Shown: positions 9,511 to 40,342, counted from the stretch's first letter. The stretch: DNA of 64,000 nucleotides from Planctomycetota bacterium (GCA_965228735.1 OZ245838.1:3296001-3360000); one strand, 5' to 3'. Translations and numbers: made by a program. The notes: a model not told the origin generated them from the letters alone.

Positions 9511-9568
9511 CGTTTGGTCCTCGGGCAGTCAGCGCGACCGGCGTGGTGTCGCCGGCGCACGCCGCCTG

Positions 9569-9600
9569 TTGATCATATGACTAATAACTCATATGATCAA
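9569..9600. promoter_or_regulatory. Perfect 12-bp inverted repeat, probable ArsR operator
   Basis: TTGATCATATGA-ctaataac-TCATATGATCAA, AT-rich, between the divergent dioxygenase and ArsR genes. Confidence 0.75.
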
Positions 9601-9603
9601 GCC

Positions 9604-9993
9604 ATGAGCAAGAACCGGAAGCCCCTGAACCGGAAACCCCTGAACCGGAAGCCCAAGAATCGGCAGCAGGGGAAGCGGCTGTCGGACGCCCAACTCGAGG
9701 CCGTGGCGCGACGGTTTCGCACGCTCGCGGTCCCGAGCCGACTCCGGATCCTCGACGGTCTGATGGCGGGACCGCTACCGATGTCGGAACTCGCCGACGA
9801 GACCGGGCTCACCCAGTCGAATCTGTCCCGCCAGGTCACCGAGCTCGAGCGGGAGGGCTGTGTCGAGCGCGACCGCCGCGGCCGCGAGGTCGTGGTACGC
9901 ATCGCGGATCCGAGCCTCGCACAGCTCTGCGAGCTCGTCTGCGGGGCCCTGCAGGAGCGCGCAGCGACGACACAGGCGCTGCTCGGCGACTGA
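9604..9993 (+). CDS. ArsR/SmtB family transcriptional regulator
   Basis: VARRFRTLAVPSRLRIL, ELADETGLTQSNLSRQV..L.R.G.V.R.R.G and a C-terminal LCELVC. N-terminus carries an NRKPL repeat from a 15-bp tandem. Confidence 0.9.
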   Translation: MSKNRKPLNRKPLNRKPKNRQQGKRLSDAQLEAVARRFRTLAVPSRLRILDGLMAGPLPMSELADETGLTQSNLSRQVTELEREGCVERDRRGREVVVRIADPSLAQLCELVCGALQERAATTQALLGD

Positions 9994-10014
9994 GCCCCGT
10001 GCAAGCCGACGCGA

Positions 10015-10623
10015 TCAGCCGCCGAATCGATCGCGCACCACGACTTCGTCGAGCGTGAGCTGACCGGGCTTCGGCCACGGGTCCTTCGTTCCGCGCCCGA
10101 CCGCGACCATCGGGCCGATGACGTGATCCGCGGGCAGGTTGACGAGCTCGGCCACCTTGTCGTGCTCGAAGCCGATCATGGGACACGACTCGTAGCCCAT
10201 CGCGGCGGCCGCGACCATGATCGTCTGCATCGCCATGCCGATCGAGCGCTGGGCCTCGTCGCGCTGCAGGTCCTCCTTGCCCTCGTGGAACGGCTCCATC
10301 CAGTTCACGAGCAGTTCGGCGACCTCGCCCGGCGCGTTGCGCCAGTAGCGCTGCGGCTCCTTCGCCCACGCCTTCGTGTCGGCGGTCATGAGAATGAGCA
10401 ACGACGCATCCGTCATCTGGGCCTGATCGTTGCCGACCGCGCGGATCTGCCTGCGCAACTCGGGATCGCTCACGATCACGAACCGCCAGTGCTGGATGTT
10501 GAAGCTCGTCGGCGACTGGATCGCAGCCTGCATGAGCTTGTCGACCTCGGCGTCGGTCAACCGATGGTCCGGGTCGAAGTGCTTGACGGCACGGCGGGCA
10601 TAGATGGCTTCGAACGTCTCCAT
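10015..10623 (-). CDS. Nitroreductase family protein
   Basis: IYARRAVKHF, SPTSFNIQHWRF, GYESCPMIGF. Confidence 0.9.
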   Translation of the reverse strand: METFEAIYARRAVKHFDPDHRLTDAEVDKLMQAAIQSPTSFNIQHWRFVIVSDPELRRQIRAVGNDQAQMTDASLLILMTADTKAWAKEPQRYWRNAPGEVAELLVNWMEPFHEGKEDLQRDEAQRSIGMAMQTIMVAAAAMGYESCPMIGFEHDKVAELVNLPADHVIGPMVAVGRGTKDPWPKPGQLTLDEVVVRDRFGG

Positions 10624-15954: not shown

Positions 15955-16431
15955 CTACTTCTTCTCGCGCTCGGACCCACTCTTCTTCGCGGGCTTCTTC
16001 GCGCGCTCGGGCTTGCTCGAGCCCTTCTTGGCGGGACGCTCCTTCGGCTGCCGGGGCTGCTTCTTCTGGCCCTTCTTCTGGGCCTTCTCGCGCAGCTGCT
16101 CGACGAGCTTGTTCGCGGCGGCCTCGTCGATCGAGGCCTTCACGACCTTGAGCTTCTTGGCCTTCGGAGCGGGCAGCGTGCCTTTCTCCTTGCGGGCCTT
16201 GCGCGCCTTGACCTCGGCCTTGTGCGCTTCGACGGCGTCCTTGTGCTCCTGCTTGAGCTCGGCCTTCAGCCCGGCGACTTCATCGGCCTTCACGACGCGG
16301 TACTCGTCGTCGATCTGAACGACGGCGTGCGGGATCGGCTTGCTCTCGGGCTCCTGCGCCATGGCGGGTTGCGCCAGGGTCGCGACGGCCAGAAGGAGGG
16401 AGACAGGAACGAGGGAGACTTTGATGTTCAT
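15955..16431 (-). CDS. Secreted Lys-rich hypothetical protein
   Basis: Signal peptide MNIKVSLVPVSLLLAVATLAQPAMA, GC3-rich codons, and an upstream sigma54 motif. Confidence 0.7.
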   Translation of the reverse strand: MNIKVSLVPVSLLLAVATLAQPAMAQEPESKPIPHAVVQIDDEYRVVKADEVAGLKAELKQEHKDAVEAHKAEVKARKARKEKGTLPAPKAKKLKVVKASIDEAAANKLVEQLREKAQKKGQKKQPRQPKERPAKKGSSKPERAKKPAKKSGSEREKK

Positions 16432-16474
16432 TGGAATGGGCGCCCGGCGATCTCGAGGGCGGTCGCGCCGAGAG

Positions 16475-16490
16475 AGCAACAGCCGTGCCA
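16475..16490 (-). promoter_or_regulatory. sigma54 -24/-12 promoter
   Basis: TGGCACGGCTGTTGCT matches TGGCAC-N5-TTGCW. Confidence 0.8.
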
Positions 16491-16654
16491 CGGCGAATTC
16501 GGCCGCGGCGGGCCGCCGACCGGGCCTACCGCCACCCAACCGGACGACGGACCACTCACGGCACACCCGATCGGGTGTCCCGCCTCCGATTCCGAATCGC
16601 CGGCGGACACCGCCGCTGACCCGCCAGGCGCCGCGCGCTACCGTGCGGTCGCCC

Positions 16655-18097
<1,443 letters not shown>

Positions 18098-18691: not shown

Positions 18692-19888
18692 TCAGTCGCC
18701 GGGAACGACCGCAGCGCTCGGCCCGGGCCAGCTCCAGGCGATCACGTTCGTGAGGCATCGAACGGTTCCGCCGCTCGGCGCGATCGCCGCGACATCGATC
18801 GGCAGCACCGCGACCCCGACCTCCCGGAAGGCCCGAGCCGCCACCTCGTCGAGCTCCGGCAACCCGTAGGCCGGCATGTAGGCCCGGCGCCCGTCGGCCC
18901 GGCGCTCGATCACGGCGTTGTTCCAGGTCAGCACGTTGCCGTCTTCGCCGTGCACGATCGGCAGCCGCCGCACGGTCAGGCCCTGGCGTTCGAGCTCGTT
19001 GAGCACGCACTCGTAGCGCGCCAGCAGACCCGAGTGCAGCGCCACCTGCGTCCACGCGTCGAAGTCCGGCACGTTGTCGGCCGGCTCCCGCCCCAGCAGC
19101 TCGAGGCCCAGAACCGGGTCGCCGAGCAACACGGTCCGTTCATCGACGACGGTCATGAACATGTCGAGGTGCTCGTGCGGCGGCGCGGGGCGGCCGACGA
19201 CGACCAGCGGACAACCGAACATGCGCGCGAACGCCGCCTCGATGTCGTCGGTCATTCCGTTCTCCAGATTGTCGGTGACCGTCTTCCAACCGATGAACGC
19301 GTGCGTGCCGTTGCACGCGACATCGCCGCCCTCGAACGAGTAGCCGGTCGGAAAGCAACGCGCGCTGGGCGCGGCCGACGCGTGTGCCCCCGCGAGATCG
19401 CCGAGGTACTCGGGGTCGACCCGATCGATCCTCGGCGTGAGGAACGCGGACCGGTCGCCGTCACGAATCGCCACGTACCGATCCCGAGCCCACGACGTCA
19501 CGGGGCGCCCGACGACGAGCGTGCACGGTCGGTCTCGGATCGCCGGCGCTTCGAGAGCCAACGCACGCGCGAGGTGGTCGGCCTCGGCCTGGCCGTGGAC
19601 CGCGATGGAGACCCGCACCGCGGGCGGCAGCGACCGCAGCAGGTCACGGCAGGTCGGCAACCATTCCGCCATCGCGTCCGGGTCGTAGTGCAGCACGATG
19701 TGGTCGATCGCGGCGCAGCCTTCCGGGAACGGCGTCGGCGGCAGCTGGGCCGACGCCCGCGCTACCGTCACCGATGGTCGGTGCGGCAACGCCTGGAACG
19801 ACTGTGCTGCCAGCGGCACCCCGCAGGCCGCCGACGAGAGCACGGTGACAAGCCAGCGGAACCCGCCGTCCCTCATGGATCGTTTCAT
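18692..19888 (-). CDS. Secreted agmatine/peptidyl-arginine deiminase-like protein (amidinotransferase fold)
   Basis: WARD, FEGGD, HLDMF and C-terminal GGTVRCLT catalytic Cys; signal peptide. Start placed downstream of the sigma54 motif (19888 or 19876). Confidence 0.7.
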   Translation of the reverse strand: MKRSMRDGGFRWLVTVLSSAACGVPLAAQSFQALPHRPSVTVARASAQLPPTPFPEGCAAIDHIVLHYDPDAMAEWLPTCRDLLRSLPPAVRVSIAVHGQAEADHLARALALEAPAIRDRPCTLVVGRPVTSWARDRYVAIRDGDRSAFLTPRIDRVDPEYLGDLAGAHASAAPSARCFPTGYSFEGGDVACNGTHAFIGWKTVTDNLENGMTDDIEAAFARMFGCPLVVVGRPAPPHEHLDMFMTVVDERTVLLGDPVLGLELLGREPADNVPDFDAWTQVALHSGLLARYECVLNELERQGLTVRRLPIVHGEDGNVLTWNNAVIERRADGRRAYMPAYGLPELDEVAARAFREVGVAVLPIDVAAIAPSGGTVRCLTNVIAWSWPGPSAAVVPGD

Positions 19889-19900
19889 CGGCGTTGCACT

Positions 19901-19916
19901 AGCAACGCGCATGCCA
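19901..19916 (-). promoter_or_regulatory. sigma54 -24/-12 promoter
   Basis: TGGCATGCGCGTTGCT. Confidence 0.75.
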
Positions 19917-23471: not shown

Positions 23472-25154
23472 TCAGCGACGTTCGCCGGCGACGAGATCCC
23501 ACCGGTCGCCGGGACTCAGCCAGACGGGTTCGGGCGCGCCGCCGTTGTCCGCGGCGCTCGCCTCGAGGAAACGGCCGCAGAGTCGGCGCCAATCGTAGAT
23601 CGCGATCTTCGACGCGCCGATGACCTCGAGCTCGTGCCCCGCGACGACGGCCGCGGTGCCTTCGTCGACGCCGATCCCGATGAGCTGCGGGTGGGTCTCG
23701 ATGAGGCCGGCGAGGTCACGCATCCGGTTCCGCGCGAGGAAGTGCTGATCCACCGCGCAGCCCGGCAGGAACGCGAAGCCGCGGTCGTAGCCCTCGCACG
23801 CCATGTCGCGATTGCCGAGCGGATTTCCCCGCACGAGGAAATCACCCTGAATCGTCGCGCCGGCGCTGCTGCCACCGATCACCCCGCCGCGCTCGAGCAC
23901 GGCGCGAAAGGCCGGCATCGCGAGGGTATCGGCAAACGCGTCGACGAGCCGCCACTGCCGACCGCCGCCGAACCACACGCCCGTCGCGTCGGCGAGAACA
24001 GTGAGGCGCTCGGGCGTCACTTCGTCGGGGTGCGCACAATCGAGGACCGCGACCTCGGCACCGCGCTTCTCGAACGCACCGCGCAGGTAGAGCCGCCGGT
24101 CACGCGAGCCGCCGCGGCCGCCGCGGGGCGCGGGACTCGCGCTCGGCACGAGCACGATCTTGCCATCAGCGCCGCCGGCGAGCGCGACGAAGCGGTCGAT
24201 CACGGCGGCCGGCAAGCGGCCGCCGCCGGCGAGCATGACGGCACCCGACGGCACGCGCGGCGCTGCCATCGTCGCCGGCGGCCACGCAGCGCCGACGCGC
24301 GCCGCGGCGGCGCGCTGCCAGCTCACGAGGTCCGCGCGTTCACCGGCACTCAACCGCACGATCTTCTCTTCGTGGCCCGCGCCGGCCGGCAACACGAGCG
24401 TCACGTCCGAGGCGCCGAGCACGCGCATCGCGCGCCCCTGCACGACGAGTGCAGTGCCCTCGTCGACGCCGAACCCGAACGCCCCGCGCGTCTGGGCGAG
24501 CGCTCGCCGCAGCCGCGGCAGGCGCTCCCGCGCGCGGAAGTGCTGATCGCCGATCGCGCCAGGGACGAGGTCGAGGCCCTGACCGAGCACCGGCTCGGGG
24601 TTGCCCGACTGGATCATCGTGCGGGTCTGGATCGCCAGGCCAGCCGAGCTGCCGCCGACGACACCGCCGCGGTCGAGCAACGCCATGACCTCGCGTTCGA
24701 AGCGGGTGCCGACGTAGGCCTCGGCGAGCCGGCGCTGCTGCCCGCCACCGAACCAGACCGCGGTCGCGCGGCGGAGCGGAGCGCAGAACTCCTCGTCGTT
24801 CGCGCGCTCGCGATCGCGGGTATGGAGCACGACGAACTCGGCATCGGGCCGACTCTCACGCCACTGGGCGACGAGCCGCGCCTGCGAACTCTCGGAGTCG
24901 GCGCGCGAGCTCGCCGTCGGCACGAGAACCACGACCGCCTCGTCCCCGCCCGCGAGCGCGAAGAACCGCTCGTAGATCGCAGCCGGCAACCGGCCGCCAC
25001 CCGCCAGAATGCGCGCACCCGGCACGCCGGCGGGATCGATCGCGCGAGCCGCACACGTCGGATCGGCGCGCGGCGTGGATGACTGGGCAACGGCAGTCGC
25101 GCTCGCGAACGCAAGACCGAGGCAGGCGACGAGGACGGGCAGGCAACACCTCAC
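23472..25154 (-). CDS. cphB: Secreted tandem double-domain cyanophycinase / peptidase S51
   Basis: Two repeats of LAGGG, VP(T/S)AS, VWFGGGxQ, GGSSAG, DQHF, GVDEGTA; signal peptide. Confidence 0.8.
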   Translation of the reverse strand: MRCCLPVLVACLGLAFASATAVAQSSTPRADPTCAARAIDPAGVPGARILAGGGRLPAAIYERFFALAGGDEAVVVLVPTASSRADSESSQARLVAQWRESRPDAEFVVLHTRDRERANDEEFCAPLRRATAVWFGGGQQRRLAEAYVGTRFEREVMALLDRGGVVGGSSAGLAIQTRTMIQSGNPEPVLGQGLDLVPGAIGDQHFRARERLPRLRRALAQTRGAFGFGVDEGTALVVQGRAMRVLGASDVTLVLPAGAGHEEKIVRLSAGERADLVSWQRAAAARVGAAWPPATMAAPRVPSGAVMLAGGGRLPAAVIDRFVALAGGADGKIVLVPSASPAPRGGRGGSRDRRLYLRGAFEKRGAEVAVLDCAHPDEVTPERLTVLADATGVWFGGGRQWRLVDAFADTLAMPAFRAVLERGGVIGGSSAGATIQGDFLVRGNPLGNRDMACEGYDRGFAFLPGCAVDQHFLARNRMRDLAGLIETHPQLIGIGVDEGTAAVVAGHELEVIGASKIAIYDWRRLCGRFLEASAADNGGAPEPVWLSPGDRWDLVAGERR

Positions 25155-25449: not shown

Positions 25450-25465
25450 CGGCACGGACCTTGCG
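25450..25465 (+). promoter_or_regulatory. sigma54 -24/-12 promoter
   Basis: CGGCACGGACCTTGCG; the -12 half is duplicated by a 14-bp tandem at 25459-25486. Confidence 0.7.
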
Positions 25466-25516
25466 ACTCCGGCCTTGCGACTCCGGCGCCCAACCTCGTC
25501 GACGACCGCCGCCCCA

Positions 25517-25873
25517 ATGAAGAAGATCGAAGCCTACGTCAAGCCGTTCCGGCTCGCGGAGATCCGCGACAGGCTCGCAGAACGGCGATTCGACGTCCTG
25601 CGGGTCCACCGCGCCGAAGAAGTGCGCCCCGCGGAAACGTACACGGAGACGGTGCAGGGCGTCGCCTACGAGGTCGACTCGACTCCTCGCGCATTGATCG
25701 TGTTGCTCGTCGAAGAGAAGGACCTCGAGGAAGCCATCCGCCTCATCCAGAGCGTGGGCAAGACCGACCACGCCGGGGACGGTCGCATCGTCGTCACTCA
25801 CGTCGACCTCATCGCCGCGATCAACCCGGACGAGAATCCGGACTCCGAGATCCCGGGACGGCATGTCAACTGA
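25517..25873 (+). CDS. Degenerate P-II family protein
   Basis: MKKIEAYVKPF, Tyr at position 51, TDHAGDGRIVV B-loop. Lacks GFGRQKG and the C-terminal RxR. Confidence 0.8.
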   Translation: MKKIEAYVKPFRLAEIRDRLAERRFDVLRVHRAEEVRPAETYTETVQGVAYEVDSTPRALIVLLVEEKDLEEAIRLIQSVGKTDHAGDGRIVVTHVDLIAAINPDENPDSEIPGRHVN

Positions 25874-26402
25874 CGGCCAGTACGTGCTCACCGCCCTCGG
25901 AGCGGCAATGGCCCTGCTGTCGAGCGACGCACGTCCCCAGGGGCAAGGCAACGCCATCGGGACCGTGACCATCGCGGCGCCCGTGTTGGCAGGTCCTGCG
26001 CACGCATCGGCTGACGGCCAGTTCAGCCTGCGCTGGCAGGTCTCGCTCGACGACGTCGAGGATGCGGTCGCAGCCGCAGTCGAGTTCGAACTCGAAGAGC
26101 GCGCCGGCGACGCACGGACGCTGCTCGCCGCCGGCCATCATCTGGCGGCAGCGCTCAGCGGTCGCGACGACGGCGACTACGACTATCGCGTCAGAGCCGT
26201 GCAGACCGGCCACGCGATCAGCCCGTGGAGCGAGCCCGTCACGGTGCAGGTGCGGCATCACCCTCTGGGCTTCGCGCTGCGAATGTTCGCGGTCGGCGCG
26301 GTCGTATTCCTCGCGACTGCCGCGCTCGTGCTCGTCGGGCATCGGCGCGCCCGCCCGAGCGCCCATGCGACCGCCGCCGGCGACGCCGCGACCTCCGCCT
26401 GA
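25863..26402 (+). CDS. Membrane-anchored protein with FN3-like domain
   Basis: FSLRW...EFELEE...LSGRDDGDYDYRVRA.....SPWSEP.TVQV.HH, then a C-terminal transmembrane segment. Confidence 0.65.
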   Translation: MSTDGQYVLTALGAAMALLSSDARPQGQGNAIGTVTIAAPVLAGPAHASADGQFSLRWQVSLDDVEDAVAAAVEFELEERAGDARTLLAAGHHLAAALSGRDDGDYDYRVRAVQTGHAISPWSEPVTVQVRHHPLGFALRMFAVGAVVFLATAALVLVGHRRARPSAHATAAGDAATSA

Positions 26403-26414
26403 CCTCGAAGCGCC

Positions 26415-27833
26415 ATGAACATCCAGTTCCTCGACCCATGGGTCGCCGGTGGGTTGCTTGCTGCCTTCAGCATTCTGTGGGTGTTCCTCGGCTGGTACTG
26501 GGGGCGCAAGAACAGCGACGTCGACGACTTCATGCTGGCTGGCCGCAAGGTCGGGCTCGCGCTCGGCAGCGCGACGGCGATGGCCACGTGGGTGACCAGC
26601 AACACGACTCTCGTCGCGCCCGAGCTCGCGTTCAACTTCGGCATCTGGGGCATGCTCGGCTACTCGCTCGGATGCGTGGGCCTGCTGCTGTTCGCGCCGA
26701 TGGCGTCCCGCATCAGGCACCTCATGCCCCGCGGATACACGAGCGGCGACTTCGTGCGGCTGCGGTATGGCCGGGCGGCGTGGCGGGTCTTCCTGCTGAT
26801 CTCCGTCGCCTACAGCGGCGCCTGGCTCGTCAGCCTCGGTTCCGCCGGCGGCCTGCTGATCCAGGCGCTCAGCGGCATTCCGTTCCTCGTCGGCGCGACG
26901 GTGATCCTGGTGATCTGCGTGCTCTACACGCTGCTCGGCGGCCTGCGGGCCGTGATCGGCACCGACTTCATCCAGACCATCGTGATCATCTCGGGTGTCG
27001 TACTGGTCGGCGTGATGACGCTGCAGCAGGTCGACCTGCAACAGGTTCATGCCCGCCTCAGCGATGTCCGCCCGCGCCTGCTCGACGCGCTCATGCCGGC
27101 GGCGGTGATGTTCCTCTTCAACAACCTGCTCTTCGGCATCGGTGAGATCTTTCACTCGAACGTCTGGTGGAGCCGCGCGTTCGCGTTCGACCGGGGCGTC
27201 GGGTTCAAGGCCTACCTGACCGCCGGTCTGCTCTGGGCGCCGATCCCGATCGCCGCCGGCTTCATCGCGCTCTCGGCGCCGGCCCTCGATCTCGCCGTGC
27301 CGCGCGCCGACATGGTCGGGCCGCTCGTGGCCGCGAACGTGCTCGGGGTGGGCGGCGCCGTTCTGCTGTTCATCGTGGTCTTCTCGGCGATCGCGTCGAG
27401 CCTCGACTCGCTCCTCGCAGCGACGAGCGACCTCGTCGTCGAAGACATCTACCGGCGCCACCTGCGCCCGAACGCGACTCCCACTCAGCTGCGCCGGGCC
27501 GCGTCGACCACCATCGTCGCGCTCGGCGTGCTGACCTGGGTCATCGTCGCGCTCGACATCTCGACCCTGGCCAAGCTGCTCAACTTCGCCGGTGCGCTCG
27601 TCGCGAGCACGATCTGGCCGATCGCGGCCGGCCTCTACTGGCGTCGAACGAACCCGCTGTCAGCGACGCTGGGGATGGCCCTCGGATCGATCGGCGGCCT
27701 GCTCGCCTACTTCCTCATCGACTGGTACGTCGCGGCCCTGGTCGGCGCCGCGATCTCCATGACGATCGTGCTCGCCCTCACGTTCGTGCGGCCGAGTGAC
27801 TTCGACTGGCGTCGACTGGGAGCCGGATCATGA
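26415..27833 (+). CDS. Sodium:solute symporter (SSS family)
   Basis: DDFMLAGRKV, ATWVTSNT, YTLLGGLRAVIGTDFIQ, SAIASSLDSLL; about 13 hydrophobic segments. Confidence 0.9.
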   Translation: MNIQFLDPWVAGGLLAAFSILWVFLGWYWGRKNSDVDDFMLAGRKVGLALGSATAMATWVTSNTTLVAPELAFNFGIWGMLGYSLGCVGLLLFAPMASRIRHLMPRGYTSGDFVRLRYGRAAWRVFLLISVAYSGAWLVSLGSAGGLLIQALSGIPFLVGATVILVICVLYTLLGGLRAVIGTDFIQTIVIISGVVLVGVMTLQQVDLQQVHARLSDVRPRLLDALMPAAVMFLFNNLLFGIGEIFHSNVWWSRAFAFDRGVGFKAYLTAGLLWAPIPIAAGFIALSAPALDLAVPRADMVGPLVAANVLGVGGAVLLFIVVFSAIASSLDSLLAATSDLVVEDIYRRHLRPNATPTQLRRAASTTIVALGVLTWVIVALDISTLAKLLNFAGALVASTIWPIAAGLYWRRTNPLSATLGMALGSIGGLLAYFLIDWYVAALVGAAISMTIVLALTFVRPSDFDWRRLGAGS

Positions 27834-27952
27834 CCGTTCCGCCGTTCGTCCTCGAAGCGTTGGTCTACGCCGCGCTGACCGTGAGCGCGGCCGCGCCGAT
27901 CGTGCTCCTCGCCCTGCTGTTTCGAGACTGGAAGAGAGGCAACCTGTGGTAG
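27830..27952 (+). CDS. 40-aa single-transmembrane small protein (not in ORF track)
   Basis: MTVPPFVLEALVYAALTVSAAAPIVLLALLFRDWKRGNLW*. ATGA overlap with the symporter stop, and overlaps the next GTG start. Confidence 0.75.
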   Translation: MTVPPFVLEALVYAALTVSAAAPIVLLALLFRDWKRGNLW

Positions 27953-29034
27953 CCACACCGACCCTGCATCCTCGCCTGCAAGGCCCGATCGACGTGCGCA
28001 GCCCGCACGTCGGACTCGAGCACCCGCGCCGACTGCTCGCGACGGTTCCCGAGAACCCGAGCGCCCTGCTCGCGCTCGCGACCCGTCACATCGTCTCGGC
28101 CCTGCAGTTCGACCGTGAACTCGTGACCCAGCTCTGCCGGCTCGCGGCGAGCATCGAGATGCAGCCGAAGCTGCTCCACCTGCCGCTCACGGGCAAGATC
28201 CTGATCACCGCGTTCCTCGAGCCGAGCACGCGGACGCGGCTGTCGTTCGAGAGTGCGTGGCACCGACTCGGCGGCGACATCCTGTCCATCACCGAGGCGG
28301 CAACGACGGGGATCGCGAAGGGCGAGAGCCTCCGCGACATCGCCGAGATGTTCAGCAACTACGGCGACGCGGTCGTGCTCCGTGACAACAACGAGCACTC
28401 GGTCTACGAGATGCTCGACACGCTGCGGGTTCCGATCATCAACGCCGGCAACGGCATCGACGAGCACCCGACGCAGGCACTGTCCGACATCTACGCGATC
28501 GTGAAGTGGCGCCCGCAGCTCCTGACGGACGAGCCGGGCGACCGACTGCGGATCGGCATCATCGGCAACCCGGCGAAGATGCGGACGGTTCGCAGTTTGC
28601 TGCTCCTGCTGAGCCTCTTCCCGCACGCGATCGACGAAGTCGTGGTCGTCAGCGGCGCCGGCACGGCGGATCCGTTCGATCCCGGCCAGCGCGAACTGCT
28701 CGAGGAACGCGGTCTCCGCCTCAGGGTCGAACGACAGCTCCAACACGTTCTGCAGACCCTCGATGTCGTCTACATCAACTCGATCGCGTGGATCGGCGAC
28801 ACGTTCGAGCGCCTGACGGGCGATCTCCGGCTGACCGCCGGTTCGGCCGTCAAGGACGGCGCGATCATCCTCCATCCGCTCGCCCGCGGCGCGGAGCTCG
28901 ACGTCAGCCTCGATGACACCGAGCACAACTGGTACTTCAGCCAGGCCCGCGGCGCGACCTTCCTCCGCATGGCGCTGCTCACCTGCATGGTCGAGCGCGT
29001 GCATCGCGTCGCCGACGTCGAACCCCCGGCGTAG
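27946..29034 (+). CDS. Aspartate carbamoyltransferase-like enzyme with non-canonical acceptor site
   Basis: FLEPSTRTRLSFE, KGESL, NAGNG..EHPTQAL, RTVRSL, HPLAR. The YMTRxQxER motif is replaced by YINSIAW. Confidence 0.85.
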   Translation: MVATPTLHPRLQGPIDVRSPHVGLEHPRRLLATVPENPSALLALATRHIVSALQFDRELVTQLCRLAASIEMQPKLLHLPLTGKILITAFLEPSTRTRLSFESAWHRLGGDILSITEAATTGIAKGESLRDIAEMFSNYGDAVVLRDNNEHSVYEMLDTLRVPIINAGNGIDEHPTQALSDIYAIVKWRPQLLTDEPGDRLRIGIIGNPAKMRTVRSLLLLLSLFPHAIDEVVVVSGAGTADPFDPGQRELLEERGLRLRVERQLQHVLQTLDVVYINSIAWIGDTFERLTGDLRLTAGSAVKDGAIILHPLARGAELDVSLDDTEHNWYFSQARGATFLRMALLTCMVERVHRVADVEPPA

Positions 29035-29061
29035 CGATCAGCCCAGGACACGACCGAACTC

Positions 29062-31098
29062 ATGTGTGGCATAGCCGGCATCTTCCATCTCGACCGCAAT
29101 CGCCCCGTCGACCCCGCCCTGCTCGCGGGAATGGCGGCGATCCAGCACCACCGCGGGCCCGACGGCTGTGGGCACCACGTCATCGACGATCGGGGCGTGG
29201 GGTTCGCCCACGCCCGGCTGGCGATCATCGATCTCGAAAACTCTGGACAGCAGCCCCTGGTCGCCGGAGGGCAACGCTGGATGCTCACGCACAACGGCGA
29301 GTTCTACGACTACGCCCGGATCCGGGCCGACCTCGCGACCCGCGGCGCCAGGTTCACGACGAAGAGCGACTCCGAGATCGTGCTCCACCTGGCCGAACGC
29401 CGCGGGCTGGAGGGCGCCCTGCCGCACCTGCGCGGCGAGTTCGCGTTCGGGCTCTACGACCGTGAACGGGACGAGCTCACGCTCGTGCGCGACCGCTTCG
29501 GCGTCAAGCCGCTCTACTGGACGCGAACGAGCAACGGCATCGTATTCGGGTCGGAGATCAAGGTGCTCTTCGCGCATCCCGACGTCCGACGGGAGTTCGA
29601 CGACGAAGGTCTGTTCCACCAGTTGATGCAGACCATCGTGCCCGGGTCGACCCCGTTCGCGGGAGTCCACCAGGTCAAGCCGGGACACGCGCTCACGGTC
29701 CGCCGCCAGAACGGCGATCTGCTGATCGAGGACCGCCGCTACTGGGACATGCCGTTCCCCGAGTGGAACGACCGCGGTCCGGACCGCCCGGAACAGGACG
29801 TCATCGAGGAGGTCCGAGCGCGCTTGCTCGAGGCGGTGCAGCTGCGGCTCGTCGCCGACGTGCCGGTCGGATGCTATCTCTCCGGCGGCATCGACTCGTG
29901 CTCGATGCTCGGGCTCGCGGCCGCATGCCGTCAGGACGCGGTCAAGGCGTTCACGATCGGCTTCGACAACAAGGACTACGACGAGACCGAGATCGCGCGG
30001 GAGATGGCTCGGTCGGTCGGTGCGGACCAGGACGTGCTCGCGCTGGACGCTGGCCATCTCTACGACCACTTCGTCGAGACCCACTGGCACACGGAGCGAA
30101 CGATCTACAACACGCTCGGTGTGGCCAAGCTGCTCATGAGCCGGCATGTCCACCGGGCCGGTTACAAGGTCGTGATCACCGGCGAAGGCTCCGACGAACT
30201 CTTCGCCGGCTATCCGTCCTTCCGGAACGACCTGTTCGCGCACGGCCTCGCGCATCTGCCGGCACCCGAACGGGAGGCGATGCAGGAGGCGCTGGGCCGG
30301 TCCAACGCCGTCTTCCGCGGCGCGATGCTGCCCGTCGAGACGCATGACGACCCGGATCTCGAGAGGGTGTGCGGCTTCACCCCGACCTGCCTGCAGCCGT
30401 GGCTCAATGCCTCGCGCCACGTCGCGCCGCTGATCGATGGCGACCGACGGGCGCGGCTGGCGGGCTACAGTCCGGGCGCAGCGATCGCGAACGCCCTGGA
30501 CGAGAGCGCGATGCGCGGCCGTCATCCGCTCGACGTCGCGCAGTACGTCTGGATCAAGACGATGCTCGAAGGCCAGATCCTGACCTGGGGCGGTGACCGC
30601 GTCGACATGGCCAACTCGATGGAGGCACGTCCCGCGTTCCTCGATCACCACCTGGCGGAGTTCGCCGCGACGATCCCGCCGCAGTATCGGATCCGCGGGA
30701 TCACCGAGAAGTGGGTCCTGCGTGAAGCCATGAAGGGCGTGCTGCCGCGCGTGCTCTACGAACGGGAGAAGTTCGCGTTCATGGCACCACCGGCGCACAC
30801 CGACCCCGCGAAGCGCAAGGCGCTCGGCGCCCTGACGAGCCGATACCTGAACTCAGGGTCCATCCGCCACTCCAACCTGCTCGACGAAGGCGGCGTCCGG
30901 GACGTGCTCGACCGCTACGCCGACGACAGCCGACCGCGCGATGAGCTCGTGCAGCTCGATGCCGTCGTCAACCACCTGCTCGGAGTCCAGATCCTGCACG
31001 ACCAGCTCGTCGATCAGGACGTGCCCGCGCTCGCAGCAGCGCGAGCGGACGAGCTCGGCGACGGGGTCGTCGCCGTGGCCGAGCCTGTCGCGCGTTAA
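29062..31098 (+). CDS. asnB: Asparagine synthetase B-like glutamine amidotransferase
   Basis: MCGIAG (N-terminal Cys), HRGPD, HNGEFY, RDRFGVKPLY, LSGGIDS, TGEGSDE, DRVDMANSMEAR. Confidence 0.9.
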   Translation: MCGIAGIFHLDRNRPVDPALLAGMAAIQHHRGPDGCGHHVIDDRGVGFAHARLAIIDLENSGQQPLVAGGQRWMLTHNGEFYDYARIRADLATRGARFTTKSDSEIVLHLAERRGLEGALPHLRGEFAFGLYDRERDELTLVRDRFGVKPLYWTRTSNGIVFGSEIKVLFAHPDVRREFDDEGLFHQLMQTIVPGSTPFAGVHQVKPGHALTVRRQNGDLLIEDRRYWDMPFPEWNDRGPDRPEQDVIEEVRARLLEAVQLRLVADVPVGCYLSGGIDSCSMLGLAAACRQDAVKAFTIGFDNKDYDETEIAREMARSVGADQDVLALDAGHLYDHFVETHWHTERTIYNTLGVAKLLMSRHVHRAGYKVVITGEGSDELFAGYPSFRNDLFAHGLAHLPAPEREAMQEALGRSNAVFRGAMLPVETHDDPDLERVCGFTPTCLQPWLNASRHVAPLIDGDRRARLAGYSPGAAIANALDESAMRGRHPLDVAQYVWIKTMLEGQILTWGGDRVDMANSMEARPAFLDHHLAEFAATIPPQYRIRGITEKWVLREAMKGVLPRVLYEREKFAFMAPPAHTDPAKRKALGALTSRYLNSGSIRHSNLLDEGGVRDVLDRYADDSRPRDELVQLDAVVNHLLGVQILHDQLVDQDVPALAAARADELGDGVVAVAEPVAR

Positions 31099-31568
31099 GG
31101 ACCGTCGGACTCGGCAGCGCGCTGCGGATAGAGCAGCAATGGGATCGAGCTCTTCCGAACGACGCCCTCGGCGACGCTGCCGCCGAACAGACGTTCGAGC
31201 CCGGAGCGGCCGTGCGTCGCCATCGCGATCATGTCGGCGTCGAGCGCCTCGGCCTGCTCGACGATCGTCTCCGCCACATCGAGACCGCGCACCGCCTCGA
31301 TGCCGATGCGCTCGAGCGGCGCGAAGCTGCCACGCAGTTCTTCGAGGCGCCCACGCGCGGTCTTCAGAGCCTCCTCGAGGTCCGGCGCGACCGCCGGCAT
31401 CGCGGGCACGCTCGGGATGCCGGGCGCGACGATGGTGACGGGATCGACAACGACGTGCAGCAGCGTCAGTCGTGCATCCAGAGCAAGCGCCAAGGCTGCT
31501 ACCGGCTCACACATCTGCAACGAGAGATCGGAGAAGTCCGTAGCGGCGACGATGTGAGGTGTGGTCAT
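31095..31568 (-). CDS. Universal stress protein
   Basis: IVAATDFS, LLHVV, ADMIAMATHGRSGLERLFGGSVAEGVVR. Confidence 0.9.
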   Translation of the reverse strand: MTTPHIVAATDFSDLSLQMCEPVAALALALDARLTLLHVVVDPVTIVAPGIPSVPAMPAVAPDLEEALKTARGRLEELRGSFAPLERIGIEAVRGLDVAETIVEQAEALDADMIAMATHGRSGLERLFGGSVAEGVVRKSSIPLLLYPQRAAESDGP

Positions 31569-31579
31569 CCCCGGCAAAC

Positions 31580-31595
31580 TGCAAGCCGCGTGCCC
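31580..31595 (-). promoter_or_regulatory. sigma54 -24/-12 promoter
   Basis: GGGCACGCGGCTTGCA. Confidence 0.7.
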
Positions 31596-31697
31596 TGCCC
31601 CGCGAAATCCGATCTCGCTGCAGCGCACGGACGCGGTTCACTCGTGCGATCCCCCAGATGCGGCGAGCACGGGCGAACCCGCGCTCGCGCGGCGACG

Positions 31698-32390
31698 TCA
31701 GTGCTTGCCATCCGTCATCACGAGATCGGCGCCGAGGGATGTCAGCACGGCGTCGATCTCCTGAACGGACGGACCGGCCCTGCGGCCCGCCATGCCCTCC
31801 TCCGTCGCGACCTCGTGTTCGCGAGCCGCGTAGCTCAGCCGCTGCAGCCGATCGACCTTCTGTTCCATGGTCGCCTCACCGTCCTCGAGGATGGCCACGA
31901 TCGCGGGGTGGGCCGGAGTGGCCGCGGGCAATCCGGCCTCGTGAACGGTGCCGTGATCGCGAAACGCCTCGAGCATCGCGATGTGGCCCTGCACCTGCGG
32001 GCGCAGCTGCGTAGCGACGTGATCCCTGGTCGCGGTGTCGAGCGTCGGACCGTCCAGCATCCCGTCGTAGCCGACGAGACCCTGTTGTTCACCCCGGAGC
32101 AGGACCTTGGCAGCGGCCTCTGCGCTGGCGAGCGATGCCGCGCTCGCCAGCACCTGAGCGAAGACGCCCCACGGACCGGACCGCTCCGGCGGTTCACCCT
32201 CCGCCAGGACGATCTGACTGCGGAACCACTCGACGGCAGCAGCGTGGTCGTCGCGAATGCGATGCAGCATGCGGGCGAACTCGGGCGCCGTCGCCATCAG
32301 ATTGTCGATCGCGAGTTCATAGGTCTCGACGGCGGTCATCTCACCGCGCATCAATGAAGTCAGTGAATCGGTCAATCGTTCGTCAGTCAT
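31698..32390 (-). CDS. DUF2383/PA2169-like ferritin-fold stress protein with C-terminal extension
   Basis: L.SLMRGEMTAVETYELA...DH......R..I...GE.P..SGPWG...L.RGEQQGL..Y. Confidence 0.75.
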   Translation of the reverse strand: MTDERLTDSLTSLMRGEMTAVETYELAIDNLMATAPEFARMLHRIRDDHAAAVEWFRSQIVLAEGEPPERSGPWGVFAQVLASAASLASAEAAAKVLLRGEQQGLVGYDGMLDGPTLDTATRDHVATQLRPQVQGHIAMLEAFRDHGTVHEAGLPAATPAHPAIVAILEDGEATMEQKVDRLQRLSYAAREHEVATEEGMAGRRAGPSVQEIDAVLTSLGADLVMTDGKH

Positions 32391-32402
32391 GCCCGTCCAG
32401 GT

Positions 32403-32418
32403 AACAACCGCCATGCCA
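32403..32418 (-). promoter_or_regulatory. sigma54-like promoter (GT at -12)
   Basis: TGGCATGGCGGTTGTT. Confidence 0.55.
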
Positions 32419-32550
32419 GGCGCGCAAAAGCGGCCAGCGCCCGTCCTGTGGCCGCCCCGATGCGAATCGGAACGCCACCTGCCGGCGCGACCAGAACCGG
32501 ACATTCCGAACGACGAACCCGCCGCGCGGCTGCGCGGGCGGCCGCGATCC

Positions 32551-32566
32551 TGGCACGGGGCTTGCA
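32551..32566 (+). promoter_or_regulatory. sigma54 -24/-12 promoter
   Basis: TGGCACGGGGCTTGCA, full consensus. Confidence 0.85.
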
Positions 32567-32593
32567 CCGCCTCCGCGCGGAAGCCAGCACCCC

Positions 32594-33961
32594 ATGACGA
32601 CCGAACGACCTGCGACGCAAGGCCAGGAGCGCATCACGGCCGACCTCTATTCCCCGACGGACCACGTCGAACACCACTTCGCGCGCCTCGCGACGATCGG
32701 CGTTCAACCGGACGGATCCATCAACCGGATCGCCTGGACCGACGCCGAGTCGCAGGCCATTGCGATGATCCGCTCCGAAGGCGAGGCCTTCGGGCTGACC
32801 GGCCGGTACGACGCGATCGGCAACCTGATCCTGTCACTGCCTGGCAAGGCCGAACGCCGCATCCTGGTCGGCTCCCACCTCGACTCGGTGCCGCACGGCG
32901 GCAACTACGACGGCGCGGCCGGCGTGGTTGCCGGGCTCGAAGCCATGCGGCCGCTGGTCGCCGATGCGGAGAAGCTGCAAGCCGGCGTCGATCTCGTCGT
33001 GTGGCGCGGTGAAGAACACACCTACAACGCGGTCTACAAGGGCAGCGCGAGCGCGTTCGGTAACTCCGAGACCCACATCCTGCACAACGCCTACGATGGC
33101 GTGTCGCTGCGGGATGCGATCGCGAGTCAGGGGTTCGATCCGTCCTGCATCGACGAGAGCCGCCCTTCGTTGGGGCGCGACTACATCGATTCGATCCTCG
33201 GCTACTACGAGCTCCACATCGAGCAAGGCGTTCGGCTCGAGCGCGAGAACCTCGACCTCGGTGTCGTCACCAGCATCGCTGGTGACCGCCGCTTCCTCGT
33301 CGTCCTCGAGGGTCGGTTCGACCATTCGGGCGCGACCCCGATGGGCACGAACTTTCGTTGCGACTCCAACCTCGCACTCGGCTACATCATCACGCGGCTG
33401 GACGAACTCAGTCGCGATGCGGCCCGCGCGGGCAACGTGTTCACGCAGACCATCGGGATCGTGAATGCCGACCCGGAGATCGACCGCAAGCACCCGGCGG
33501 TGCACAGCAACTCAGTCACCAAGGTCAGCGGCCTCGCGTATTTCACGCTCGACATCATGTCGGCCGACGACACGTTCATGGACTCCTACTCGGCTGACGT
33601 CCTGCGTGCGGTCTGGCAGACCGCGAAGGAGTTCCACGTCAAGGCGGTGATCGAACAGACCGACACGGCGCGCGGCCTCCGTGAACTCGACCCGCGCCTT
33701 CGGAGTCGCCTGATGGCTGCCGCGCAGGCCCGCGACTTCTCGGCGGTCGAGATGCCGAGCGGCGCGGGGCACGACGCCGTGGCTGTGGCGCACGCGGATC
33801 GCGGCCCCCTGGGGGCCATCCCGGTTGGCATGCTGTTCGTCCCGTGCCGCGCCGGCATCAGTCACGCTCCGGAAGAGTTCGCCGAGGCCGATCACGTCGC
33901 GAAGGGAGCGGCGGTGCTCTCCGACGCAATGCGTGACATCGCGCAGCGAGGCGAGATCTAG
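32594..33961 (+). CDS. M20 Zn-dependent N-carbamoyl-L-amino-acid / allantoate amidohydrolase family
   Basis: GSHLDSVPHGGNYDG, WRGEE, ELHIEQG, DHSGATPM, MPSGAGHDA, GISHAPEE. Confidence 0.9.
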   Translation: MTTERPATQGQERITADLYSPTDHVEHHFARLATIGVQPDGSINRIAWTDAESQAIAMIRSEGEAFGLTGRYDAIGNLILSLPGKAERRILVGSHLDSVPHGGNYDGAAGVVAGLEAMRPLVADAEKLQAGVDLVVWRGEEHTYNAVYKGSASAFGNSETHILHNAYDGVSLRDAIASQGFDPSCIDESRPSLGRDYIDSILGYYELHIEQGVRLERENLDLGVVTSIAGDRRFLVVLEGRFDHSGATPMGTNFRCDSNLALGYIITRLDELSRDAARAGNVFTQTIGIVNADPEIDRKHPAVHSNSVTKVSGLAYFTLDIMSADDTFMDSYSADVLRAVWQTAKEFHVKAVIEQTDTARGLRELDPRLRSRLMAAAQARDFSAVEMPSGAGHDAVAVAHADRGPLGAIPVGMLFVPCRAGISHAPEEFAEADHVAKGAAVLSDAMRDIAQRGEI

Positions 33962-36204: not shown

Positions 36205-37764
36205 ATGCCGGACGAAATCGACCTCAGTCAGTTCGAGTCCAACCTCAAGCTCGTGAAGCTGCAGGTCGACGATTTCGAACGGATCGTGGACCTGCAGCGA
36301 CGCTGCTTCCCGGGCATGCCGGTCTGGACCAAGGCGCACATCGAGAGCCAGGTCGAGCACTTCCCGGACGGCCAGCTCGGCATCACCTACGACGGCAAGC
36401 TCGTCGCGTCGTCGTGCAGCCTGATCGTCGACTACGACCTGTGCTCCGACTGGCACGACTGGAAGGCCGTGAGCGACGGCGGCTACATCAAGAATCACGA
36501 CGAGAAAGGCGACGTGCTCTACGGCATCGAGATCATGGTCGATCCGGAGTATCGCGGCATGCGGCTCGCGCGCCGGCTCTACGACGGCCGCAAGGAGCTC
36601 GCCCGGGAGCGCAACCTCAAGGGCATCGTGATCGGCGGCCGGATCCCGGGCTACGCCGCCCACAGCAGCGAGATGACGGCGCACGAATACGTGCAGAAGG
36701 TCGAGGCCAAGGTCCTCGTCGACCCGGTGCTCACGGCGCAGCTGGCGAACGGCTTCGAGCTGCGGCAGGTGATCCCCGACTACCTGCCGAGCGACGAGGA
36801 CAGCGCCGGCTGGGCGACCCACATGGAGTGGACCAACGTCGACTACCGCCCGTTCCGCAAGCGGACGATGCAGCCGACCCAGGTCGTCCGGATCTCGACC
36901 GTGCAGTACGGGATGCGCGCCATCTCGACGTTCGAGGACTTCGAGCACCAGTGCGAGTTCTTCGTCGACACGGCGGGGGACTACAAGTGTGACTTCATCA
37001 CGTTCCCGGAGCTGTTCACGACCCAGCTCCTGTCGCTCGTCGAGGCCAAGCGCCCCGGCAAGGCGGCGCGCGCCCTCGCCGACTTCAACGAGCGCTACCT
37101 CGAGTTCTTCACGTCGTTGGCCGTGCGCTACCACGTCAACATCGTCGGCGGGAGCAACTTCGCGGTCGAGGACGAGAAGCTCTACAACGTCGCCTATCTC
37201 TTCCGCCGCGACGGCTCGATCGACAAGCAGTACAAGATCCACGTCACGCCCGCGGAATGGCGCTGGTGGGGCGTGAACGGCGGCAGCACGGTCGAGGTGT
37301 TCGACACCGACTGCGGCCGCATCGCGATCCTCATCTGCTACGACATCGAGTTTCCCGAGCTCGCCCGCATCGCGGCGAAGAAGGGTGCCCAGATCATCTT
37401 CGTGCCGTTCAACACCGACGAACGCTACAGCTACCTGCGCGTTCGCCACTGCGCGATGGCGCGCTGCGTCGAGAACCACGTGTACACGGTGCTGTCCGGC
37501 TGCACCGGCAACTTGCCGCTCGTCGACAACGCCGACCTGCACTACGCCCAGTCGGGCATCTACACGCCGGCGGACATCGCGTTCTCCCGCGACGGCATCG
37601 CGGCCGAGTGCACGGCCAACGTCGAGACGATGATCATGCAGGACCTCGACATCGAGCAGCTGCGCAAGCACCGCTACAAGGGCACGGTGCAGAACTGGCT
37701 CGACCGCCGCACGGATCTGTATCGGGTGCGATACCGCGAGGCGGGCAGCGACTTCGAGGTGTGA
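36205..37764 (+). CDS. Bifunctional GNAT acetyltransferase / carbon-nitrogen hydrolase
   Basis: [15 protein letters not shown] (acetyl-CoA motif A); FPE, QYKIH and ICYDIEFPE (Glu-Lys-Cys triad). Confidence 0.9.
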
Positions 37765-38854: not shown

Positions 38855-40342
38855 ATGACTTCCGATTCCGACTCTCGCCCTTCCCGTCGGCCGCGCATCA
38901 CCATCGCGCTGCCGAACGGCGCGCTGCGCGACCGCCTGCTCGAGGCGCTGCAGAAGGCGGACGTCGACCTCGACGTCGTCGACGCCGCCTCGGCGATGTC
39001 CGGGGTGGAACAGGCCGAGGGCGACATCGTGCTGCTCGGCCCGGGCCAGGTGCGAAAAGCGAACCTCGACGAGCTCGGTGAGGTCGCGCGCTCGGACGAC
39101 GAAGCCGGGCTCGCCGTCGTCGGTGAAGACGACCCGGCCAAGCGCGCCAAGCTCGTCGCCGCGGGGTTCTCGAGCGTGCTCAGTACTGATCAGTCCGAGG
39201 CCGACCTCGCGGCGTCGCTCGAGGCGCTCGCGGCGGCGGAGGCCGAGGGCGGCGTCGGTGGGCCCGAGGTCGGCGGCGCCGGGGTCGAACCGCGGCTGGC
39301 CGATTTCCTCACGCGCAGCCCGCGCATGCAGGAGTTCGTCGAACTCGTGCGGCGGGTGATCCCGGCGGACACGACGCTGCTCATTCTGGGACCGACCGGC
39401 GTCGGCAAGGAGCACCTCGCGCGCGCCATCCATGGCGAGAGCACCCGCGCGAAGCGACCGTTCGTGACCGTCAACTGCGCGGCGCTGCCCGAGCAGCTGC
39501 TCGAAGCCGAGCTGTTCGGCCACGCGAAGGGCGCGTTCACCGGCGCCGAGCGCGCGCGCAAGGGCCGCTTCGAGCTCGCAAATCGCGGTACGCTGTTCCT
39601 CGACGAAATCGGCGAGATGCCGCTGCATCTGCAGGCCAAGCTGCTCACCGTGCTGCAGCGCCACGAGGTCACGCCGATCGGCTCCGACCAACCGATCAGG
39701 GTCGACGTGCGCGTCGTCGTCGCGACGAATCGCGATCTGCAGGAGGAAGTCGCGGCCCGGCGCTTCCGCGAGGACCTGTTCTTCCGCCTCAACGTCGTGC
39801 CGCTCGAGATCCCGGCGTTGGCCGCACGCGCTGACGACATCCCGGAGCTCGTAGGCCGCTTCATCCAGCACTTCCGCGCCACGATGCCGGTCTCGAACGT
39901 CACCGCGATCGCCGACGACGCGCTCGAGCTGTTGATGCACTACTCGTGGCCCGGCAACATCCGCGAGCTCATCAACGTGATCGAACGCGCGATGCTGCTC
40001 GGGCGCGGAACTCGCATCGAGTGCGCCGATCTGCCGGCCGCCGTCACCGGCGGGAGCCCTGGCGACAGCGACGGCGACGAAGCGGGGTCGGCGTCCGCGG
40101 CGACGTCGCCACTCGGGCCGTCGTTGCCGCGATCACCCGCGCCGGACCTCGACCTCGAGCAACCGATCAAGGCCACCCGCGAACGCGCCGTCGCGAACGC
40201 CGAACGCGCCTACCTCGACGCGGCGCTGCGCCGGACGGGCGGCCAGGTCGGCGAGGTCGCGAAGATCGCCGGCATCAGTCCGCGCGCGCTCTACGAGAAG
40301 ATGAAGCGCTACGAGCTGCGCAAAGAGGATTACCGCGGCTGA
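38855..40342 (+). CDS. sigma54-dependent enhancer-binding protein, paralog of 16655..18097
   Basis: [44 protein letters not shown]; both paralogs end in LY.KMK...LRKEDYR. Confidence 0.92.
   Translation: MTSDSDSRPSRRPRITIALPNGALRDRLLEALQKADVDLDVVDAASAMSGVEQAEGDIVLLGPGQVRKANLDELGEVARSDDEAGLAVVGEDDPAKRAKLVAAGFSSVLSTDQSEADLAASLEALAAAEAEGGVGGPEVGGAGVEPRLADFLTRSPRMQEFVELVRRVIPADTTLLILGPTGVGKEHLARAIHGESTRAKRPFVTVNCAALPEQLLEAELFGHAKGAFTGAERARKGRFELANRGTLFLDEIGEMPLHLQAKLLTVLQRHEVTPIGSDQPIRVDVRVVVATNRDLQEEVAARRFREDLFFRLNVVPLEIPALAARADDIPELVGRFIQHFRATMPVSNVTAIADDALELLMHYSWPGNIRELINVIERAMLLGRGTRIECADLPAAVTGGSPGDSDGDEAGSASAATSPLGPSLPRSPAPDLDLEQPIKATRERAVANAERAYLDAALRRTGGQVGEVAKIAGISPRALYEKMKRYELRKEDYRG

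Follow-up and report, generated by a model that had tools for sequence, protein, structure and literature searches.

A conserved pseudo-ATCase and AsnB-family gene cluster in Planctomycetota and other bacteria, a candidate pathway for an N-carbamoyl amino-acid amide

We analysed a 64,000-nucleotide stretch of DNA from a Planctomycetota bacterium (GCA_965228735.1 OZ245838.1:3296001-3360000), called the window below, and found in it a gene cluster centred on a divergent member of the aspartate carbamoyltransferase (ATCase) family, a pseudo-ATCase, and an AsnB-family amidotransferase. The nearest named relatives of the host, at 73-76% identity, are genomes of Planctomycetota. An earlier note on this DNA had read the cluster as a pathway that makes, recovers and degrades an N-carbamoyl amino-acid amide osmolyte. 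The six coupled genes and a separate M20 gene are all intact, of full length and on the + strand. With their promoter motifs they are, counted from the first letter of the window:

25450..25464, + strand: sigma54 (-24/-12) type promoter motif of the operon, a sequence pattern that recurs in the same-genus genome G007
25517..25873, + strand: divergent P-II-like signalling protein (Pfam P-II)
25863..26402, + strand: exported small domain, putatively beta-type, with a C-terminal membrane helix (gene-context conservation)
26415..27833, + strand: SSS-family symporter, DUR3-like (Pfam SSF; closest solved relative DUR3)
27830..27952, + strand: 40-aa single-helix membrane micro-protein (orthologues; complex model)
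27946..29034, + strand: pseudo-ATCase, a predicted non-aspartate carbamoyltransferase, with a GTG start (motifs, score, fold)
29062..31098, + strand: glutamine-dependent amidotransferase of the AsnB family whose acceptor segment is non-canonical (Pfam, NCBIfam, motifs)
32551..32565, + strand: sigma54-type promoter motif of the M20 gene (strict consensus match)
32594..33961, + strand: M20 N-carbamoyl-amino-acid amidohydrolase of a separate lineage, with Met322 (TIGR01879 over cut-off)

The gaps across the operon are -11, +12, -4, -7 and +27 nt, which bears out the tight coupling described in the earlier note. Family assignments by Pfam and NCBIfam were P-II, SSF, OTCace, Asn_synthase and M20 carbamoylase. 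The first gene, previously called P-II-like, matches Pfam P-II at E 1e-6 and P-II entries of the PDB at E 8e-14, and it scores far below the NCBIfam GlnB/GlnK cut-offs. The 40-aa peptide is a real gene, with 63 distinct orthologues taken from the loci. The label 'FN3-like' for the exported membrane protein is based on motif likeness and found no support in Pfam: the window protein matches no family, and only sub-threshold Ig/PKD-like matches were found, in some of seven homologues. Both sigma54 motifs were recovered, at 25450 and 32551, and in G007 a motif of this type likewise precedes each of the two units, the operon and the M20 orthologue. The 7.19-Mb genome has 45 matches to a relaxed version of the motif, an average of 0.4 per 64 kb; five of them fall in the window. 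The pattern was not found in the scanned loci of G027 or of the Ectothiorhodospira order, where a MarR gene precedes the cluster. As a separate observation, motifs at window positions 16490, 18120, 25450, 32551 and 40444 all lie within 24 kb, and the same island holds two NtrC-like sigma54 activators (16340-18097 and 38855-40342).

The reading in the earlier note depends on the transferase not being the only pyrB of its genome. We confirmed this: the window protein scores 180.4 bits, below the TIGR00670 ATCase cut-off of 236.95, and a separate gene at G000:C1:2704025-2705365 (2.704 Mb in the host genome, G000) passes this cut-off, keeps the R-x-Q motif and is the true pyrB. The host genome also has two OTCase-type genes, and a separate pyrB over the family cut-off was present in 4/4 other planctomycete and 5/5 gammaproteobacterial carriers tested. 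The true pyrB product of the host has a C-terminal extension with Cys pairs that resembles a fused PyrI regulatory domain.

To compare active-site residues, we aligned 123 transferase homologues, namely the best 120 of 3461 together with three named cluster members. The STRT and HPxQ carbamoyl-phosphate motifs of the ATCase/OTCase superfamily are invariant in this set, as are S94-T97, K125, R146, H174, Q177 and R213. In ATCase, K84 and R167 hold the alpha-carboxylate of the substrate, and R229 and Q231 hold the side-chain carboxylate. Two basic residues corresponding to the alpha-carboxylate ligands are retained in the window transferase. The positions of E. coli R229-x-Q231, the aspartate motif of ATCase (PMC4016543), read S/A-I-A/C in 123/123 homologues, so that R-x-Q is absent throughout. 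N278, W282 and HPLA are invariant, and position 211 is Lys or Arg in 120/123. The predicted structure (pLDDT 90) has ATCase as its closest fold (the CAD ATCase domain; Z 36.6, rmsd 2.0, 298 aligned). The protein thus shares its fold and carbamoyl-phosphate site with PyrB (EC 2.1.3.2), but it has other residues at R229-x-Q231 and in the loop after it, HPLA instead of HPLP, and no pyr context. This motif pattern and the residue roles in ATCase point to an amino-acid acceptor whose alpha-carboxyl is free and whose side chain differs from that of aspartate. Since the transferase would need this carboxyl to be free, the likely order of reactions is carbamoylation followed by amidation.

The AsnB-family partner has intact Ntn glutaminase and ATP-pyrophosphatase motifs, as expected of asparagine synthetase B, and Cys2, the SGGIDS loop, E375 and K570 are kept in 80/80 orthologous loci. 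The aspartate-activation segment of E. coli AsnB is T322-T323-x-R325. It aligns with N350-T351-L-G353 of the window protein; across the 80 loci the position of Arg325 holds Gly or Ala, and the acceptor segment is invariant and the family's own. The protein is over the broad TIGR01536 cut-off and below that of NF006949 (248 versus 499). Nor is it AsnO, as it reaches 283.6 bits against the cut-off of 570 for the AsnO equivalog TIGR03104. The host genome holds no gene over that cut-off, and the window operon contains no ngg GNAT/ligase gene. AsnO amidates the terminal glutamine carboxyl in the synthesis of NAGGN (PMC8070244). The NAGGN genes asnO-ngg (PA3458-PA3461; TIGR03104) and the window system resemble each other in joining an N-capping enzyme, an AsnB-family amidotransferase and a hydrolase, often with a MarR gene, towards what would in both cases be a charge-masked glutamine derivative. 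They differ in the cap, which would be a carbamoyl group from an ATCase paralogue instead of an acetyl group from a GNAT/ligase, in the amidotransferase (284 against the AsnO cut-off of 570) and in the dedicated symporter of the window system. By analogy with AsnO, the AsnB paralogue is predicted to amidate an alpha-carboxyl group.

Motifs and gene context place the window transferase in the group of marine pseudo-ATCases described by Barba et al. in 2013 (PMC4016543). That paper gives a motif set and a gene context for the group, assigns no substrate, and names R. baltica RB13301, Nitrosococcus, Synechococcus WH8102 and Kangiella as members. The window family shows the HPLA and SIA/AIA/AIS motifs of the group and keeps STRT and HPTQ; its cluster likewise has a Na+ symporter on one side of the transferase, an asparagine-related gene on the other and a HyuC-like hydrolase nearby. 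In contrast to the 'putative asparaginase' described there, the window partner is a synthetase-type amidotransferase. Osmolytes are not mentioned in the accessible part of PMC4016543, and the P-II gene and the Arg-less M20 enzyme described below are particular to the window's lineage. Table 1 of that paper places these motifs under 'pseudo-ATCase 1', but the marine context goes by the name Subgroup 3 in its text; the subgroup labels appear to be swapped. Another pseudo-ATCase with a non-aspartate substrate, the ureidoglycine carbamoyltransferase Rxyl_2847, differs in its purine-catabolic context with carbamate kinase and allantoinase, neither of which was seen at the window cluster.

We then assessed how far the cluster is conserved. 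In 58/58 distinct loci with at least 3 kb of downstream flank, the transferase is followed within that distance by an AsnB orthologue. In 48 wide loci, which include one degenerate paralogue and near-duplicates and, having been drawn by two queries, are biased to their kin, the partners were AsnB (47), M20 (43), the SSS symporter (42), the membrane protein (36), the 40-aa peptide (36), an isochorismatase-family hydrolase (36), MarR (20) and P-II (9). Cluster hosts belong to Planctomycetota, Spirochaetota, Rhodothermaceae and Gammaproteobacteria, and the transferase-asnB-SSS trio, on whose conservation elsewhere the earlier proposal depended, was found across four phyla. The transferase occurs in 4/91 genomes of the host's family, 2/300 other genomes of its phylum and 24/400 of a class-wide gammaproteobacterial sample that includes the carrier on which it was centred. 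Its frequency in two orders was 11/22 and 49/55, the latter being the order of Ectothiorhodospira, which was named by inference and consists mostly of haloalkaliphiles. Two loci, L168 (G336, 9212-10363) and L169 (G419, 9224-10435), hold degenerate pseudo-ATCase paralogues of about 38% identity that are without STRT and other catalytic residues, have no asnB nearby and are possibly non-catalytic derivatives.

Among solved structures, those of DUR3 urea symporters are closest to the SSS protein (E 2e-35, against 9e-12 for the next family). Aligned pairwise with DUR3, at low identity, the protein matches four of the nine urea-pocket residues listed for this urea/H+ symporter (PMC11840088): W93, T98, Y117 and W338 correspond to W59, T64, Y83 and W274, which are kept in 103-105 of 105 family sequences. 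In contrast, W95, Q124, N305 and Y461 align with the smaller T61, G89, G241 and L389, near-invariant in the same 105 sequences, Y315 is replaced by Trp, and the proton-site residues D312 and E402 are not kept. The complete urea pocket and proton sites of DUR3 are therefore not present, and the smaller, near-invariant lining suggests a carrier of a ureido solute larger than urea.

The 40-aa peptide gene stays behind the SSS gene even where the cluster is split. We modelled the complex of the two proteins from alignments of 60 rows, namely the window pair and 59 of 63 orthologue pairs. The score was 0.81, compared to 0.00 for the best control; the mark it passed is reached by 116/157 solved pairs and 2/215 mismatched pairs. 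The runs agree in at least 99% of contacts, with a partner pLDDT of at least 84. The model supports binding, and the peptide is predicted to be a symporter subunit, although the model may have passed because the pair resembles solved SSS proteins that have an additional helix. In G470 and G479, where the cluster is divided, the gene for the exported membrane protein still accompanies the SSS gene, and its product is likely an accessory part of the transporter. The P-II-like protein is likely a nitrogen-status input or a transporter regulator.

The window M20 protein scores 230.9 against the TIGR01879 cut-off of 204, has the metal ligands and is a member of the carbamoylase family. We considered whether it is the usual in-operon carbamoylase and rejected this, as it shares 26-33% identity with those enzymes, compared to 47-93% among them, and falls in a separate clade (FastTree, local supports only, compositional bias flagged). 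In the M20 carbamoylases of PMC10952681 and PMC12169670, an Arg (Arg291 and Arg322, respectively) binds the substrate carboxylate. The window protein keeps the metal ligands and catalytic Glu pair of these enzymes but has Met in place of the carboxylate Arg and Thr at the partner Asn. Among 146 aligned M20 proteins (the window protein, 129 of 150 library matches within 380-500 aa and 16 loci), this Arg is present in 141, and Met occurs in a single five-member clade that includes the window protein (Met322). A nearby Lys could replace the lost Arg; it also occurs in relatives that retain Arg.

Orthologues of the window-type M20 occur in exactly the same 4/91 family genomes as the transferase (three genera, whose members are kin and not independent) and in 0/300 other phylum genomes at E 1e-60. 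In one of the four (G851) the gene directly follows asnB. This co-occurrence and adjacency support the link between the M20 gene and the operon that the earlier note had drawn. An isochorismatase-family amidase gene is absent from all four carrier genomes (3/3 positive controls; G851 is 73% complete). The combined loss of the carboxylate anchor and of the amidase fits a direct attack on the amide, and we predict that the window M20 decarbamoylates the amide without prior hydrolysis. Eight other loci (L004, L016, L094, L095, L108, L111, L112 and L114) also have no isochorismatase-family gene; their in-operon M20 proteins carry His for the conserved Asn and keep Arg, and those of four of these loci, which are on the tree, form their own clade. 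This His subtype may be another way by which M20 enzymes came to act on the amide.

Ectothiorhodospira marismortui produces N-carbamoyl-L-glutamine 1-amide (CGA; PMC1224877, PMC3857566), and CGA was the only compound returned by a literature search for natural compounds of the carbamoyl amino-acid amide type. NCBI files E. marismortui under E. mobilis. Three E. mobilis-named proteins fall in the pseudo-ATCase family, and the transferase of genome G470 is identical to one of them over 355 aa. The gene trio is present in Ectothiorhodospira, as the earlier reading would have it. In G470 the gene order is MarR, M20, amidase, transferase and asnB, between a sugar kinase and sucrose synthase, and the genes for the membrane protein, SSS symporter and 40-aa peptide lie together, away from the enzyme genes. 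This genome has three ATCase/OTCase-family genes (pyrB, the pseudo-ATCase and a third taken as argF) and no NodU/CmcH gene (control positive in G000); the pseudo-ATCase is therefore its only unassigned carbamoyltransferase among the families tested. In Ectothiorhodospira loci (L160 12938-15322, 6049-6963) the enzyme module is flanked by sucrose synthase on one side and a PfkB sugar kinase on the other, which brings two osmolyte pathways together. The earlier view that these genes had no known assignment stood in part. We found no gene assignment for CGA and no paper tying the pseudo-ATCase group to it, in a search that left subscription journals and theses uncovered, and PMC7824335, in its accessible text, mentions CGA without genes; the enzyme family and gene context, however, were published in 2013 (PMC4016543). 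The family is published and its function is not. The DUR3 likeness of the symporter, the predicted subunit role of the 40-aa peptide and the separate, Arg-less lineage of the M20 are new here.

We conclude that the pathway is real, conserved and uncharacterised, and that its product is very probably a carbamoyl amino-acid amide. The best single reading, which we consider rather probable from the sequence evidence, is that glutamine is carbamoylated and then amidated to CGA, which serves as an osmolyte. The pseudo-ATCase would transfer the carbamoyl group of carbamoyl phosphate to the alpha-amino group of glutamine, and the AsnB paralogue, by analogy with AsnO, would adenylate the free alpha-carboxyl and amidate it with glutamine nitrogen to give CGA. 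A three-part Na+ carrier (the SSS protein, the 40-aa helix and the exported membrane protein) would re-import the solute. Most carriers would degrade it by the isochorismatase-family amidase and M20 carbamoylase, and in the window lineage, which is without the amidase, the Arg-less M20 would act on the amide directly. Sigma54 and the P-II-like protein would tie synthesis to nitrogen supply, replacing the gammaproteobacterial MarR regulator. More tentatively, the cluster as a whole may be the CGA gene set, far more widespread than the one species known to make CGA. It would then encode an enzyme that carbamoylates glutamine, an amidotransferase for the alpha-carboxyl and a DUR3-like ureido-solute carrier of three parts, the 40-aa peptide being one of its subunits; in the planctomycete lineage, a carbamoylase recruited from another branch would have lost its carboxylate Arg and would cleave the amide directly in place of the two-enzyme breakdown. 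The osmolyte pathway of the earlier note is thus supported in part, by the separate pyrB, the conserved trio, its presence in Ectothiorhodospira and the M20 link. Its argument from general-stress neighbours is weak because such genes are not carried along with the cluster. Between the operon and M20, Usp and DUF2383 are encoded on the opposite strand; they are not conserved neighbours, with a Usp-like match in 4/48 loci and DUF2383 in 0/48.

Several observations weigh against CGA as the osmolyte made here. The genes occur in hundreds of genomes, compared to CGA in one organism; CGA has reportedly been known since 1991, from one species. Leptonema illini, which is non-halophilic, is among the carriers, and the same-genus genome G006 (90% complete) is without both transferase and M20. 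Glutamine, glutamate and asparagine cannot be separated as acceptors by sequence. G470 is tied to the CGA producer by species name and may be a different strain, and it also has a true AsnO, another candidate for its amidation step. CGA is described as a minor solute found in one organism only (PMC3857566). R. baltica has a member of the group (PMC4016543), and the solutes reported for it by nuclear magnetic resonance are glutamate, sucrose, trehalose and MGG, with CGA not among them (PMC3694870); the words 'carbamoyl' and 'amide' do not occur in the accessible text of the latter paper. The R. baltica salt-shock lists, in the accessible part of PMC2754498, do not include RB13301; of its neighbours only RB13294 and RB13300 pass the threshold, at 300 min. 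RB13294 (182 aa, up 1.25 at 300 min of salt) resembles the membrane-protein gene by size and position only and is given little weight. In Thioalkalivibrio the main solute is named as glycine betaine, and high salt strongly raises the expression of genes for nitrogen assimilation (PMC8092127, PMC9062515).

Among other explanations, the product could be a different N-carbamoyl amino-acid amide, derived from Glu, from Asn or from some other neutral amino acid; alternatively, CGA could be mainly a soluble nitrogen store. We judge this somewhat unlikely. The P-II-like gene and sigma54 motifs do point to nitrogen control, the cluster has dedicated uptake and degradation genes, CGA is not among the solutes reported for R. 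baltica, and the Lys or Arg at position 211 could in principle hold an acidic side chain; yet CGA is the sole natural compound of its type that our literature search found, its producer species has the genes, the gene is carried by 49 of the 55 genomes in the inferred order of mostly haloalkaliphiles, and the enzyme genes adjoin sucrose synthase in Ectothiorhodospira loci. It is much less probable that the cluster scavenges, with the symporter importing a ureido compound and the transferase running backwards by phosphorolysis, like the Rubrobacter ureidoglycine carbamoyltransferase, to give carbamoyl phosphate. A carbamate kinase was over the cut-off in 0/5 carriers tested, with none at all in G000 and an unlinked near-threshold gene in G487; a carbamoylase would make phosphorolysis redundant; and the fixed partner (58/58) is an ATP-consuming synthetase, while some carriers of the cluster have the hydrolase or symporter genes elsewhere or not at all. 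These points stand against the catabolic role of the sole characterised pseudo-ATCase (PMC4016543) and the presence of a DUR3-like carrier and two ureido/amide hydrolases in the cluster.

AsnB paralogues amidate meso-DAP, and the operon encodes an exported membrane protein, so the two enzymes might instead act on a substrate of the cell envelope or one bound to a carrier, in the way that LtsA/AsnB amidate peptidoglycan. This is a slightly more remote prospect again, as the conserved neighbours read include no glycosyltransferase, flippase or carrier gene, and the small-molecule hydrolases and solute symporter fit a soluble product. Least probable by our estimate is an ordinary second aspartate carbamoyltransferase with an asparagine synthetase, as the database names, the broad TIGR01536 match and the ATCase fold would have it: the transferase has lost R-x-Q in every homologue aligned and falls below the ATCase cut-off in a genome with a true pyrB elsewhere, and the AsnB protein does not keep the Arg325 position.

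We do not count the neighbouring Usp, DUF2383, kinase/phosphatase and cyanophycinase genes as parts of the system. A two-domain secreted cyanophycinase-family (S51) protein is encoded at 23472-25154 (- strand), divergent from the operon. At 36211-37764 (+ strand) lies a GNAT and nitrilase-family fusion with a weak N-carbamoylputrescine amidase-like score; it could give amidase activity in the window's lineage, but no other locus showed it next to the cluster. An amidinotransferase/peptidylarginine-deiminase-like protein is encoded at 18692-19912 (- strand; weak Pfam match, E 8e-4).

If the CGA assignment is true, it would give a function to a published orphan group of carbamoyltransferases that databases call pyrB, and with it a new activity in the ATCase family. 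A four-nitrogen solute would then be expected in about 6% of the sampled gammaproteobacterial genomes, in nearly all of one soda-lake order, and also in planctomycetes, Rhodothermaceae and spirochaetes. The Arg-less M20 would then be a naturally occurring carbamoylase that acts on carbamoyl amino-acid amides, which is of interest to biocatalysis by the hydantoinase process.

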